Shown piece after piece: positions 9,001 through 15,000 of a stretch of DNA of 46,714 bases. Source of the DNA: Methanothrix sp. Lineage in GTDB: Archaea; Halobacteriota; Methanosarcinia; Methanotrichales; Methanotrichaceae. Positions within the stretch are counted from its first letter, which is position 1, and each line of letters begins with the position of its first letter. The position numbers are program-made. Location of the stretch: contig JBAXWY010000020.1 of assembly GCA_037128175.1 (NCBI GenBank), positions 1 to 46,714 on the forward strand, in the 5' to 3' direction.

Positions 9001-12000
9001 AAAAGTCGTGGCTCAATTGAAACTCTAGCATTGTTACGTTGATACGTGCTAGTGACACTAAATATTTCCATGACTGAAAAGTCGTGGCTCAATTGAAACA
9101 CCGCGTCATCGTAAGTGGCCTGTGTCTCGTCAATGTCATTTCCATGACTGAAAAGTCGTGGCTCAATTGAAACATTGAACCGCTTAGTTTTGTTGGCAAC
9201 GGTATATCGCCATTTCCATGACTGAAAAGTCGTGGCTCAATTGAAACGAAGGTTGGATCTAGGTCGCAAAGTAGGCCACCGCCTACATTTCCATGACTGA
9301 AAAGTCGTGGCTCAATTGAAACTGTAATAGCATGAAAACACCGATATATGCCATGAACACCGATTTCCATGACTGAAAAGTCGTGGCTCAATTGAAACCT
9401 ACCTTCTTATTAAGTACCATCTTTATACACCTCTCTATTTCCATGACTGAAAAGTCGTGGCTCAATTGAAACTTTTTTCCTGGCTGAATGAGCCAACGGA
9501 TTCTATTCCATTTCCATGACTGAAAAGTCGTGGCTCAATTGAAACTACACGCCATTAGATATTCTATCCAAGTCATTTAAAATCATATTTCCATGACTGA
9601 AAAGTCGTGGCTCAATTGAAACTGAAGGTGTCGAAATTGGTGTTGTATTCATCCATTGAATTTCCATGACTGAAAAGTCGTGGCTCAATTGAAACGATAT
9701 TAATGTTTTTGCGGAATTCATCGTAATCACCTTCAAGATTTCCATGACTGAAAAGTCGTGGCTCAATTGAAACGAATAATTTGTAATGTTCTTAGCTCTC
9801 TCATTCATATAATTTCCATGACTGAAAAGTCGTGGCTCAATTGAAACTTTAACATGGGATGACCTCCTAAATGCCCACATAATCATTTCCATGACTGAAA
9901 AGTCGTGGCTCAATTGAAACACCAATATTATATACTTCAAGTCTGTCCAACTTTTTGGATTTCCATGACTGAAAAGTCGTGGCTCAATTGAAACACTGCT
10001 GTCTTCATGTCTTTTACCTCTTTTCTATTAGCGTATTTCCATGACTGAAAAGTCGTGGCTCAATTGAAACTCCACATGTAGGCAATTAAATCTCTAGGGC
10101 TCATTTTTATTTCCATGACTGAAAAGTCGTGGCTCAATTGAAACCCAATATCCAATGTTGATTTTCGCAATTGTTTCTGCTGTATTTCCATGACTGAAAA
10201 GTCGTGGCTCAATTGAAACCCGGGAGTTGTTTCAAGCTTATTCGCAAGAACCTCGAAAATTTCCATGACTGAAAAGTCGTGGCTCAATTGAAACCCAATT
10301 GTAATCCTTGGTCAAATGTTTTGATATTGTGGCTATTTCCATGACTGAAAAGTCGTGGCTCAATTGAAACTTTCGGGATTGATATTATTTATCTCCCAAT
10401 TCCCAAATCATTTCCATGACTGAAAAGTCGTGGCTCAATTGAAACCCGAATACTGAAAGCACTGCGGCTATCACGACCAAGATTTCCATGACTGAAAAGT
10501 CGTGGCTCAATTGAAACGCAAAAGGAAAATGGCGCCGGGCATCTACTGATAGCTGGATTTCCATGACTGAAAAGTCGTGGCTCAATTGAAACCAGGCAAA
10601 GTACTATTGCCCCAGTCAAAATGCTTTCATTTCCATGACTGAAAAGTCGTGGCTCAATTGAAACTTTGGTTTCCGTTTTCTCTTGCCAGTTTTACGGTTT
10701 TAATTTCCATGACTGAAAAGTCGTGGCTCAATTGAAACAATTAACTTGGGTTAACATTTGGCTCACCTGTAACGAATATTTCCATGACTGAAAAGTCGTG
10801 GCTCAATTGAAACTCGACATACTGCAGAATTCGCGGCAGCGGCTTTTTGGGAATTTCCATGACTGAAAAGTCGTGGCTCAATTGAAACCCCAACACTTTC
10901 GTGCAATCCTACTCGGACGCCTGTATTTCCATGACTGAAAAGTCGTGGCTCAATTGAAACCCAAGGCGATTAAAGTACGTTTCATCCGTGTACGCAAAAT
11001 TTCCATGACGAAAAATCGTGGCTCAATTGAAACAAGTTGTTGAATTCTTCTATTGATACGTAGTCCTGTCATTTCCATGACTGAAAAGTCGTGGCTCAAT
11101 TGAAACTTGTACAACCTGTTTGTAGGTTGGCTGGGCAGCGTTTGCATTTCCATGACTGAAAAGTCGTGGCTCAATTGAAACGGGAGTATTTGTAGTCTAT
11201 GCCGTGACCACCTCCTGCTATTTCCATGACTGAAAAGTCGTGGCTCAATTGAAACGTAGCAGCTCTCGCCACCGCGCCGTTTGATCGATCCGATTTCCAT
11301 GACTGAAAAGTCGTGGCTCAATTGAAACCCGTCAAGGGAAGATGCGTCGAAAACTTCATAAGTTGATTTCCATGACTGAAAAGTCGTGGCTCAATTGAAA
11401 CCCTATAAAACCCAGGGAATGTGCTTTTTACCCAATGCCGCATTTCCATGACTGAAAAGTCGTGGCTCAATTGAAACGAGTTATTAGAGGGCTACTGGCG
11501 TCAACCTGGAACTGATTTCCATGACTGAAAAGTCGTGGCTCAATTGAAACGCGGAAATATTCCATAATCTGAGTTCCAGAGTCACGTAATTTCCATGACT
11601 GAAAAGTCGTGGCTCAATTGAAACACCAAGTGGGCTGTCTGCAAAGTTGGGCTTATCAATGATCTATTTCCATGACTGAAAAGTCGTGGCTCAATTGAAA
11701 CCTACTGGAAGAAGACCCTGGAAGAACTGCTGAACCTAGTCCATTTCCATGACTGAAAAGTCGTGGCTCAATTGAAACTTCCTCCGGACTCAATTGCCTC
11801 ACTTAGCTGTAGTCCTTATTTCCATGACTGAAAAGTCGTGGCTCAATTGAAACTAATTTACTACACCTAGTACGTCGTCATCATAGAACAGATTTCCATG
11901 ACTGAAAAGTCGTGGCTCAATTGAAACGCCCATGCGCCCCGTCGGGGGCTCACACGTGGCGGATGGGAAACAAGATCTATCGACATTATGAATTCAGTTT

Positions 12001-15000
12001 TCCATGGGAAACTTTCGGAAAATGAGTATGTTCGATTTCCTTTGCTGGATAAAGTGCGGTCTCTCAATCGCCTTCTTGCATTTTACGACATAATGCTACT
12101 CCGTCCTTGCTCAACGCATAAGTCATCTCTCCTCGGGTTGGATGCATTATGACATATCCCAAGCTTATGAGCTTACGCAATGCTTTTTTAACCTCTCGTC
12201 CTGCCTCTGTCTGTCTGCGGGCGAAGGCCTTCTCTGGGACGTGAGCAGACTTGCTCATCTTGCATGCCCTGCAGATGCTGAGCAAAACTGCTCTATCAAA
12301 TTCCATCAGCACACTTAACAGAATATTCTAAATCTATTTAATAGTTTCTAATACAGAGAAAAGGAACTTGAAAATACGGATAAGATATTCCAATATATTG
12401 ATATACTTACAGAACGCTATTAATAAGCATGCAGTCAAAAGCAAGACGTCCTGCAATAGAGAGAGCAAGGGACGCACGGCTGGAGAGGGGCGGCGATACC
12501 GATTATGAGCTATATGAACTGATTAGCGAACACTCTGGACAGGGCGCTTATGAGCTCTCTAAGCTGAATGGCTGGACTGCAGGCCGCACGCACTCATCAA
12601 TATTGCGATTGGAGAAAAAAGGGCTCGTATCTGTGGAGCGTATTGTGCAAGGTGGGAGGACAAAGCTTGTAGTTCGCCCCAGGCCCTGGCAGGAGTTCTT
12701 CACTCCAGAGGAGCTTGAAGAAATGCGCCAGCCCGGATACTTCGAGGAAGTCGAGAAAATGGTGAAGCGAACAGAGGGCTGAAGGTCCGCATAACTGCAC
12801 CCTCTCATTAAGGAGTAATAGATTCTTAAAATAGTAATAATAGATCTCTCGTCATTGCCTTTATGCTGCCTCTTCTGTACATGCTTGTAAAAACATGATT
12901 ACTCGCCAAGGGACGATAGGATTTTCACCTCCACCTTTACCGGCACGGGATACAATAGCTCTGAGCCGATCCTTTCCATGATCTCTTGCAGCATTCGGGC
13001 ATATTCCTCCGCCCGCTCTGCCGGGACCTCCAGCAGAATTTCATCGTGAATGGAGCCGATTATCCTTGCCTCTTCTGAGGATATTTTATCGTAGACCTCG
13101 CACATCACCAGCTTGATGAGATCCGCTCCCGTTCCCTGGCAGGGAGTATTGTACATCTGGAATTTGGAAGCCCTAATTCCGGTTCCAAAGCGCGGCCAGA
13201 TCCTTCTGCGGCCTAAAGCCGTAGCGGTGCAGGTGAGCGGCAGGAAAAAGTATCCCTGAATGCAGTTGTGGAAGTAGTGCAGCACGGTGTAACTCATCTC
13301 TTGAAGCTGCCGCTCCTGCCAAACTCTAACTCCCTCATAAGTTTGGAAGAACCGGGTCTTTGCCTCCTCTGCCTCATCCAGAGACATGAATCTCCCGTAA
13401 TCGGACAAAACCCGCCACTGCAATGTCTTGGCCGATCCGCCGTAGATGAGCAGGAAGTTCATGATCTTCGCCGCCTGACGTTGCTGGTCCGTCACCTGAC
13501 TCATGTCGGCGCCACTGATTTTGCAGGCGGTTAGCCTGTGCAGGTCAACTCCCGCCCGAAATGCTTCCTGCATGGCCCTGTCCCCAGAAAGAAATGCCAT
13601 GATGCGTAGCTCAATCGCAGAGAAATCGGCCTTAACAAACCTCTTCCCGGCCTCTGGCAAGAAGAGCCTCCTTATGGCTGTGGCATCGTCCCCCTTCCTG
13701 GGAATCTGCTGGGCATTGGGATTTTTGGAACTGATTCTGCCGGTGGAGGATGGGATCTGGAAATAATGAGGATGGACCCGGCCATCTTTGGCATGAACAT
13801 GGCTTAGCCAGTTACTCAGAAATGCTAGAAGGTGAGATACATGCCTGTAACGAAGGACCGCTTCGGCAAAAGCACAGCCTGCGGCGGCCAGACCCCTCAA
13901 GATCTCTGCCTTGGTGCTGATTACACCGTAGCCCCGGCTCTTCAAAAAGGCCAAAACATCTTCCTGCCGGTCGGGATTTAGATAATAACTCAGTCTTTTG
14001 CCGTCCTCTGAAACTGTGACGAAACCTTTTCTTCTGGCCTCATCATGCACCGTCCAGACCAGATTGCAGATCTCATTTTCTTCGTCCTCGACTTTTCTTT
14101 TGGCCTGATCAGAGTCCAGATAAATACCCGAGATCTCCATCTCCGCCAGGGAGCAAACGGCTCTAAATTCCAGATCTGCAATCTTCTGCAAGCCGTTTTT
14201 AGCCAGGAGTGCTGCCAGGATGTCGTGAAGCGGTAATAGTACGGCGGATTCTTCTGCAGCTCTCCTTTCCGTCTCATTTTCACCGTCCAGGATAACGCCC
14301 AGATGCCTTTCCGCCAGGGCAGCAAGACTATGATCGGGAATATTCTTCTTCCAGGGATTTTTGGGGGAATGAGAGGGGGTAAGATAATAGTAGCCCGACC
14401 AGCAGATCTCTGAAGCAAGCATGAGGTCGAATAGATTGCGGGCATCCAGCTTTCGATTCTCCGAGGTCCTGATGAAAGCGAGGGCAGTCTTGGCATCGAA
14501 TAAAACTTTCCTGATCCGGATGTTCTCCAGGAGCCCGGCCAAATCGCTCAGAATAGTCTTTCCCAGTTCAAGGCAGTCGGCAATGTAGACGGTATGATTG
14601 GGGAGCGCGAGGGTTATAAGCCTGATTTCATGGCTCAAGGGGTCCGGGCCGGTCTTGAGCAGGTTCAAACCGCAAATCCCAAATTTCTCGATCTCTTGAA
14701 GCGCAGATTCCCATGATTCCGCTGTGGTAATGCAGGTTAACAGAGGGCTGATCGTCATCTCATTTTCAAGAATGTTTCTTCAATTTATATGATGATTGTC
14801 CTCTATCCAAGCCACATGATCCATCGAATAGCTCGATGTCAAGAATAGTTATATCCATTGAAAACTATATAGCTGCAAAGGGGAGAAAAAATGGATCTCT
14901 TTGACCTTCTTGGTAAATTCGCTAATATTGTGCAGCTCATAATGTTCTGCGTGTTTGTTTGGGCGACCGTAACCTTGCTCATAGCCAGAAAGAGGATAGA

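Follow-up and report, generated by a model that had tools for sequence, protein, structure and literature searches.

What is the 85-nt segment that directly follows the last intact repeat of a CRISPR array in Methanothrix sp., and how did it come to lie there? The stretch of DNA analyzed here (the window) is the 46,714-nt contig C20 of G000, an assembly of 98 contigs. It contains a Cas4g/Cas1g fusion gene at 5782–7470 on the forward strand (NCBIfam NF049935 cas4g_cas1g, 690.9 bits, cut-off 560) and, on the same strand, an array of 53 ATTTCCATGACTGAAAAGTCGTGGCTCAATTGAAAC repeats at 8024–11927. Because the Cas4g/Cas1g gene is located upstream of the array, the leader is placed on the left and the trailer on the right. 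The 53rd and last intact repeat ends in ATTGAAAC (11920–11927, +), and the 85-nt element (11928–12012, +) abuts this end. Behind it are a 22-nt remnant of the last spacer (12013–12034, +), whose sequence is identical behind the empty site in relatives, and a degenerate terminal repeat (about 12035–12072, +) that was read by eye and detected at ≤9 edits. A preliminary description had interpreted the segment as derived from an IS110-family insertion sequence (IS), and comparative sequence analysis supports this interpretation. We put the probability at roughly 0.87 that the 85 nt represent a miniature, non-autonomous derivative of an archaeal IS110-family IS whose guide is set to the motif at the end of the CRISPR repeat. 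The mechanism is known; the target and the derivative are new.

A genome search recovered the element at the four loci where it had been reported, each time directly after ATTGAAAC: C20:11928–12012 (100%), C73:4030–4114 (88%), C35:15474–15558 (87%) and C3:115362–115444 on the minus strand (85%). All four copies end in CCATGGGAAA(C). The C73 copy is preceded by two repeats, and the C3 copy by 33 that belong to a second repeat family; one degenerate repeat precedes the C35 copy and one follows it. As also described previously, no copy is present in the array whose repeats end in ATTGAAGC (22 repeats on C7 and 3 on C32). Matches were obtained in 37 of 104 other family genomes (E≤0.001), not in 48 as initially counted; these include single-contig genomes, and public metagenome contigs also carry the element. 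With four copies in G000 and this distribution elsewhere, an artefact of assembly or chance, conceivable for a genome split into 98 contigs, is so improbable that it can practically be set aside. An independent metagenome contig, which may come from the source sample, spans 11905–12400 with 0 differences. The contigs of four public runs contained no joint skipping the element over the covered parts of 11700–12400, and no RNA evidence at 11700–12400. One loose contig end in the public runs runs on, in another sample, into sequence of the full IS left end.

The full-length IS in G035 measures 1594 bp by our count, slightly less than the 1605 bp given before, and encodes a 439-aa protein. This protein contains PF01548 (DEDD_Tnp_IS110; 83.5 bits, cut-off 29) and PF02371 (Transposase_20; 87.5 bits, cut-off 21.3), the domains of the IS110/IS1111 superfamily; this autonomous partner lies outside the window. 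NCBI lists a 79%-identical protein as 'IS110 family RNA-guided transposase [Methanothrix sp.]'. In line with the earlier claim of IS110-derived ends, positions 1–49 of the short element match the left end of the full IS at 86–96% (blastn to the G035 copy, 85.7%; C73 copy, 95.9%), and 16 nt match its right end at 100%. The left common part (element 1–44/49; 11928–11976, +) includes a hairpin, GCGCCCC GTCG GGGGCTC (11934–11951, +), equivalents of which are present with different arm sequences in 12 of 12 IS lineages, and the left subterminal inverted repeat ATGGGAAAC (11963–11971, +). The latter pairs with 11997–12005 (96.3% of cells paired over 24 copies) and has an 8–12 bp counterpart in all 12 lineages. 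The right common part (11997–12012, +; 100% over 70–85) consists of the right subterminal repeat GTTTTCCAT and GGGAAAC. Between them is a 25-nt middle (11972–11996, +) that is absent from every full IS examined; a search for its source in loci L046–L075 gave only chance matches of 10–12 nt. The retained pieces run exactly out to the conserved subterminal inverted repeat, and the 85 nt contain no transposase, no guide RNA and no recognizable gene.

In an alignment of 24 short copies drawn from numerous loci and genomes, the left and right break points coincide throughout, and the 25-nt middle is common to all. As in MITE-like elements, the copies are short and dispersed, lack a transposase, contain both IS ends and share one internal structure. 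Each could in principle be the decayed stump of a separate full insertion, never mobile as a short element: full copies do insert into arrays, and the orthologous site in G058 contains a different stump, about 130 nt of the left end, stopping at the IS's own internal guide. Separate deletions, however, are not expected to generate identical break points and an identical middle in 24 copies, which renders this origin very improbable. For a miniature derivative, two cis parts would be retained: 44 nt from the right-donor end, hairpin included, as far as the left subterminal repeat, and 16 nt made up of the right subterminal repeat and the left-donor end. Since only cis parts are kept, the short element would have depended for its movement on a full copy that provided recombinase and guide RNA in trans; the dispersed copies and the empty site (see below) point to such mobilization.

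The preliminary statement that G000 has no IS110 transposase is correct for intact genes, and PF01548 gave 0 matches in this genome, but decayed remnants of other IS110 lineages than that of the 85-nt element do exist: the single PF02371 match in G000, a truncated, frameshifted C-terminal piece at C77:425–661, and another decayed remnant on C4. Lack of an intact partner, together with 12–15% divergence among the four G000 copies, indicates that these are old, immobile insertions. Short copies are likewise abundant in several genomes that yielded no close transposase (8 matches in G042, 6 in G057), indicating that the partner is often absent or unassembled. A comparison of the 107 G000 spacers with the IS-bearing loci gave no match at E≤0.01.

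Upstream of the transposase gene, the full IS contains a 146-nt structured RNA (z -5.66). When the RNAs were aligned, 88.8% of cells were paired, compared with at most 45.2% when slid, and double changes affected 11 pairs, whereas shuffles gave 3.9 +/- 1.5 (0/500 as high). Within an internal loop, the 3' side reads GATTGAAAC, the sequence of the left target, as had been recognized before, and this guide matches the ATTGAAAC at 11920–11927; the 5' side, GACAAGUUU, is antisense to the core and right target. The ideal site read from the guides is GATTG-AA-ACTTGTC, in which AA would be the core or crossover. The full IS would thereby supply both the DEDD/Transposase_20 recombinase and its guide RNA. 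One copy is nested in another copy, exactly after the internal GATTGAAAC of the host copy.

Guide–target pairing, previously read only by eye, proved to covary across 11 lineages when best-register counts of cognate pairs were compared with those of 110 non-cognate pairs. The left guide is identical to its own flank at 8.55 of 10 positions, compared with 5.71 for non-cognate flanks (2/110 reach the cognate median), and the antisense right guide scores 7.55 of 9 compared with 4.95 (0/110). Individual guide–flank matches include CCCTAAAC, GGCTAAAAC, TAGTGAAAC, TGCGGAAAC, CCGCCGTTT and TCCCACATT. At natural sites, though, the right flanks match the right guide little beyond AC. Loop segments that pair with both target strands and covary with them are a property of the IS110/IS1111 superfamily. 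The candidate left donor guide ATGGGAAA varies with the right end (ATGCGAA, ATAGGAAT), although it discriminates poorly (cognate 7.09, non-cognate 6.15 of 9) because the right ends are alike. Sense and antisense RNA matches to both junctions revealed nothing consistent for a right donor guide; the sole candidate was a 10-nt antisense match, in L062. Joined-end circle junctions were absent from the contigs of the four public runs, which would miss rare circles.

All 11 full copies examined and all 47 short copies examined, the latter from 20+ genomes, are inserted in a single orientation after ATTGAAAC or an 8-mer resembling it. The motif is exact in 11/11 full and 25/47 short copies, and the remainder are within one or two changes (A41 T38 T44 G44 A45 A46 A47 C41 over the 47). 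The end of the CRISPR repeat had been proposed as the element's natural target. The ATTGAAAC site itself stands, but the proposal was too narrow: 26 of the 47 short copies occupy ATTGAAAC-like sites elsewhere, outside CRISPR repeats, and 89 of the 151 ATTGAAAC sites in G000 are inside CRISPR repeats anyway. The target is therefore an 8–9-nt motif rather than the repeat end as such, and since repeat ends supply (G)ATTGAAAC in tens of copies, arrays would be the richest landing ground of the IS. The exact empty site reported before was recovered in G055 (...GGCTCAATTGAAAC|TTTCGGAAAATGAG) and G088, and the same site is filled in G000 and G051; apart from the GAAAC that both share, nothing is duplicated. 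Insertion that is oriented, sequence-specific and leaves the target unduplicated is again a feature of the superfamily.

Within arrays, 13 of 14 short copies are located at the last intact repeat. This position, together with two conserved helices, could suggest a selected host feature of the trailer (a terminator, boundary or small RNA) instead of a selfish insertion. Against such a role are the 26 copies away from repeats, the orthologous sites without the element, and the properties of the segment itself, which has no Rfam match at E≤1 and no run of five or more T. Its folding is unremarkable (z -0.8, -1.2, -0.2 and -3.25 for the four G000 copies). The weak folding counts against the IS-derivative reading too, as does the modest covariation among the 24 aligned copies, with 13 to 28 of 500 shuffles reaching the observed value by three measures and 147 and 158 of 500 by two others. 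Over the full IS locus and the four G000 loci, Rfam at E≤1 gave no bridge-RNA family, the sole matches being sub-threshold CRISPR-DR60 on the C3 array. We consider a host function quite improbable.

Alternatively, the terminal position could be mechanistic, with the recombinase preferring the last repeat–spacer junction. At C20 the sequence is AAACTT, which covers six of the nine positions that pair with the right guide, but the other terminal sites (AAACTA, AAACGG, AAACAC and AAACTG) have no common right side. Moreover, at least 9 full-length copies inside arrays are at interior repeats with intact repeats downstream, and the trailer structure behind the C20 site is present unchanged at empty sites. 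Such a preference is thus distinctly unlikely, and the end-of-array position of the short copies, as insertions of a miniature IS derivative, probably reflects survivorship, that is, loss of interior copies.

Insertions into arrays always run in the direction of array transcription, and a bolder reading can be built on this. This archaeal IS110 lineage might have set its guide to the crRNA 5' handle sequence, making arrays a safe harbour and expression platform while the element reshapes CRISPR memory. With every insertion co-oriented with the array, guide RNA and transposase would be expressed from the leader promoter, the Cas6 cut would fall eight bases ahead of the element's end, and survival would be limited to copies at the ends of arrays. 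In four relatives, the same trailer follows two different repeat families, both with the element and without it, as though recombination between arrays had taken place at ATTGAAAC. We regard this scenario as tentative and rather unlikely.

In the literature searched, supplements aside, we found no published targeting of CRISPR repeats or arrays by an IS110 element or by an IS110 MITE. The IS described here would be a natural bridge/seek-RNA transposon programmed, in archaea, against the most conserved piece of the CRISPR repeat. Its guide-less miniature would mark the sufficient cis sequences, 44 + 16 nt bounded by the subterminal repeat, and may offer a compact natural donor design. The family contains at least ten naturally reprogrammed guide/target pairs and lends itself to work on the mutual influence of RNA-guided transposons and CRISPR arrays.

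The closest known systems are the bridge RNA recombination systems of the IS621/IS110 type (Durrant et al., 2024, PMC11208160; Hiraizumi et al., 2024, PMC11208158). Shared with IS621 are a DEDD + Tnp recombinase, a non-coding RNA upstream of the gene with a segment that apparently matches the element's own right end, a loop with one sense left-target and one antisense right-target segment overlapping at a short core, and precise oriented insertion without duplication into a multi-copy repeat (REP for IS621). Unlike in IS621, the antisense (top-strand) segment is 5' of the bottom-strand segment, the core is apparently AA rather than CT, 8–12-bp subterminal inverted repeats are present, and the host is archaeal with a CRISPR-repeat-end target; the reversed order and the subterminal repeats, found in 12/12 lineages, depart from the IS110 subgroup, which has the bottom-strand match 5' and no subterminal repeats, although the upstream non-coding region is common to both. 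IS1111-type seekRNA elements (Siddiquee et al., 2024, PMC11187229) have the same segment order and subterminal inverted repeats, but their non-coding region is downstream of tnp and their repeats are 11–13 bp with 7- and 3-bp extensions, whereas the present lineages have the RNA upstream of the gene and the left repeat about 31–47 nt inside the end, which also departs from that subgroup.

Among short elements, MITEPpu9, the ssr9 module of ISPpu9 in Pseudomonas putida (PMC12288879), is likewise bounded by IS110-family-like ends and thought to be moved by a transposase in trans; it carries a small-RNA gene and targets REP in a bacterium, whereas the 85-nt element has no recognizable gene and follows ATTGAAAC. 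In Thermus thermophilus, an IS110-family database entry, IS1000A/B, shares 32 bp with CRISPR repeats (PMC6352166), an overlap that would fit insertion at a repeat; its authors interpret the repeats as partial IS copies or recruited sequence rather than as targets, and give no guide analysis. Finally, ISC1229 of Sulfolobus (PMC10883916) is also an archaeal IS110-family element holding CRISPR-repeat-like sites, which are bound by the repeat-binding protein Cbp1; protein binding, not insertion at repeats, was demonstrated, and a link between these sites and a guide segment like that of the Methanothrix IS would be speculation.

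The short element, an 85-nt non-autonomous IS110-family derivative, occupies 11928-12012, directly behind the last intact repeat of a CRISPR array of 53 repeats (ATTTCCATGACTGAAAAGTCGTGGCTCAATTGAAAC; 8024-11927, + strand) that lies downstream of a Cas4g/Cas1g fusion gene (5782-7470; NF049935, 690.9 bits, cut-off 560). Because the repeat ends in ATTGAAAC, the array is oriented along the + strand, with its leader on the cas side and its trailer to the right; rightward from 12012, the element is followed by 22 nt and then a degenerate repeat. A Family-A DNA polymerase/exonuclease-like gene (12899-14758, - strand) adjoins the array in this archaeon, and SAVED and Csb2 gene fragments, an MntA-like gene and a complete Cmr1-6 module lie downstream (14891-15442, 17651-18454, 19282-26108). 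The effector genes of type I-G look decayed, whereas those of type III-B form a whole set. The family scan also matched the archaeal hypoxanthine/guanine phosphoribosyltransferase equivalog, which, like the name NCBI gives to a related transposase, suggests a Methanothrix-like archaeon. A leader-proximal spacer (about 8135-8174) equals C2:56563-56602 of the same genome in 40/40 bases, a possible self-target or integrated element.

Four copies of the short element, 85-100% alike, were recovered from this genome by search, at the places named in the preliminary description, and each is immediately preceded by ATTGAAAC and ends in CCATGGGAAA(C). The copies on C20 (the window's contig) and C73 follow repeats of the window's type, that on C35 follows a lone degenerate repeat of this type, and that on C3 follows the final repeat in a run of 33 that belong to a second repeat family. 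As also described previously, no copy accompanies the array with the ATTGAAGC repeat ending; its 25 repeats lie on C7 and C32, where it runs off the contig end (C7:89574-91156) and resumes at C32:1-202 with a 19-nt spacer overlap, which places its trailer on C32. Several genomes have a recurring CACAGAG-rich repeat beside arrays and beside IS remnants (C77:1010-1080; loci L077, 50-110, and L008; the flank of the C3 copy). Matches to the short element at E<=0.001 were found in 37 of 104 other family genomes, not in 48 as first reported.

The trailer of the window copy, comprising the 22 nt and degenerate repeat, is also present in relatives (window 11892-12072 compared with L077, L079, L080 and L078), and the exact correspondence claimed between filled and empty sites was borne out there. 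Genome G055 contains an exact empty site, ...GGCTCAATTGAAAC directly joined to TTTCGGAAAATGAG, and G088 another behind a lone second-family repeat. G051 carries the short element at the same trailer behind a second-family array; across these loci this trailer follows either of two repeat families, in some cases with the element in between and in others lacking it. G058 has an IS left-end stretch of about 130 nt, which stops at the IS's own internal guide sequence and is joined to this trailer. The trailer swaps and the G058 stump resemble the outcome of exchange, or of aberrant excision, at ATTGAAAC.

Matches confined to the first 44-49 nt of the short element led to full-length IS elements in G035, G074, G076, G083 and other genomes. 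The one in G035 occupies six sites and encodes an identical 439-aa protein with DEDD_Tnp_IS110 and Transposase_20 domains; the domains and the shared ends agree with the preliminary description, but the length is 1594 bp rather than 1605 bp. ATTGAAAC precedes all 11 full copies examined. Positions 1-44/49 of the short element correspond to the left end of the full IS (at 86% identity in the window copy and 96% in the C73 copy) and positions 70-85 match with 100% identity; positions 45-69 match nothing in the full IS compared, consistent with the middle having been noted as absent from the G035 copy. Three to four full copies lie within one CRISPR array on G076:C12 (L043/L051). One is nested in another exactly behind the internal GATTGAAAC of the guide region, and thus the guide-encoding DNA itself serves as a target.

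All 12 IS lineages contain an 8-12-bp inverted repeat between left-end positions about 31-47 and the bases immediately inward of the right end, together with a hairpin at left-end positions about 4-25. The inverted-repeat sequence differs by lineage (ATGGAAAACCA, ATGAAAAACCT, ATGAGAAAC, ATGTAAAGC, ATGTAAAACTTG). In the short element, left homology stops just past the inverted repeat and right homology starts with it, so the short element carries the cis parts and has neither gene nor guide RNA. Across 24 aligned short copies the inverted repeat is 96.3% paired, with one pair seen as GC, AU and GU and one copy changed at both bases of a pair; by themselves these copies lend modest support to the predicted pairing. 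A second short-element family (L026, L028, L031, L034; L054) lies behind CCCTAAAC and ends in CATGGGAAAG. An IS lineage that is 63% identical (G037) has ends and a guide that match it, indicating that miniature derivatives arose more than once.

A 142-152-nt segment upstream of the transposase gene, bordered by GATATGGGCAG and CTGCCCATATC, is common to 27 distinct family IS variants. The proposal of a structured 5' RNA carrying a guide to the target held up: the fold of the RNA is far more stable than that of shuffled sequences (z -5.66), and over 21 aligned variants 88.8% of cells are paired, against at most 45.2% with slid partners; 11 pairs show changes at both bases, where shuffles give 3.9 +/- 1.5 (0/500). 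One stem-loop contains an internal loop whose 3' side is GATTGAAAC in the lineage with ends matching the short element and CCCTAAAC, GGCTAAAAC, TAGTGAAAC, TAGTCAAAC, TTTATAAAAC, GTTTAAAAC, TGCGGAAAC and others elsewhere, in each lineage equalling the bases left of its own insertion. The loop's 5' side carries the antisense of AA and of the bases to the right of the insertion (CCGCCGTTT, TCCCACATT, CGCAATTT, TGATATT, TTATTTT); one G035 copy has CAAGTTT against the site AAACTTG. Over 11 lineages, cognate pairs score 8.55/10 for the left guide and 7.55/9 for the antisense right guide, compared with 5.71 and 4.95 in 110 non-cognate pairs. The crossover dinucleotide would be AA, because AA stands at both junctions in all lineages and the next two bases vary at the right junction. 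A further RNA segment, ATGGGAAA, appears to track the element's right end (ATGCGAA and ATAGGAAT in other lineages).

The CRISPR repeat end had been proposed as the natural target. Among 47 short copies from 20-odd genomes, ATTGAAAC is the preceding 8-mer in 25, with each position conserved in 38-47; 14 copies lie in arrays, 7 follow solitary sequences resembling a repeat, and the other 26 are located elsewhere. In this genome 89 of 151 ATTGAAAC sites fall within CRISPR repeats, so the placement of all four copies at repeats is not significant alone (about 0.12). The target is the motif, which is plentiful in arrays. Thirteen of the 14 array-borne short copies lack any further intact repeat on their downstream side; a contig end truncates the 14th. 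Intact repeats do follow downstream of at least nine copies of full length. Full copies are identical within a genome, whereas short copies differ by 7-25%. We read the end-of-array position as putative survivorship: recombination between the repeats on either side would remove interior insertions, or selection would act against them, and copies adjoining a degenerate last repeat would persist.

No match to PF01548 and no intact IS110-family gene was found in this genome, as first stated, but decayed remnants are present. The only PF02371 match is a truncated, frameshifted remnant (C77:240-1000), and a second remnant (C4:about 4059-6980, minus strand), from a lineage aimed at CAAAAAAC, retains the initial 40 nt of guide RNA and, behind CAAAAAAC, its left end; both belong to other IS110-family lineages. 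Marker-based completeness of the assembly is 99.8%, but it comprises 98 contigs, and a multi-copy IS could therefore be missing from it.

The original observation is confirmed and its interpretation supported, with details corrected. The literature searched on IS110 with CRISPR repeats or arrays, MITEs and Methanothrix, supplements excepted, gave no account of an IS110-family element that targets CRISPR repeats. The nearest published cases are ISPpu9, with a MITE-like module (PMC12288879), Thermus IS1000, with 32 bp identical to CRISPR repeats (PMC6352166), and ISC1229, which is bound by Cbp1 (PMC10883916). Loop segments matching the target, with a further segment that appears to match the element end, follow the bridge/seek-RNA principle (PMC11208160, PMC11208158, PMC11187229). 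The top-strand match precedes the bottom-strand match as in IS1111-type seekRNAs, and the RNA lies upstream as in IS110-type elements (both from PMC11187229). This kind of mechanism is already known. New variations lie in what is targeted, in the miniature form without a guide, in the mixture of IS110 and IS1111 features and in the pattern of placement at array ends.
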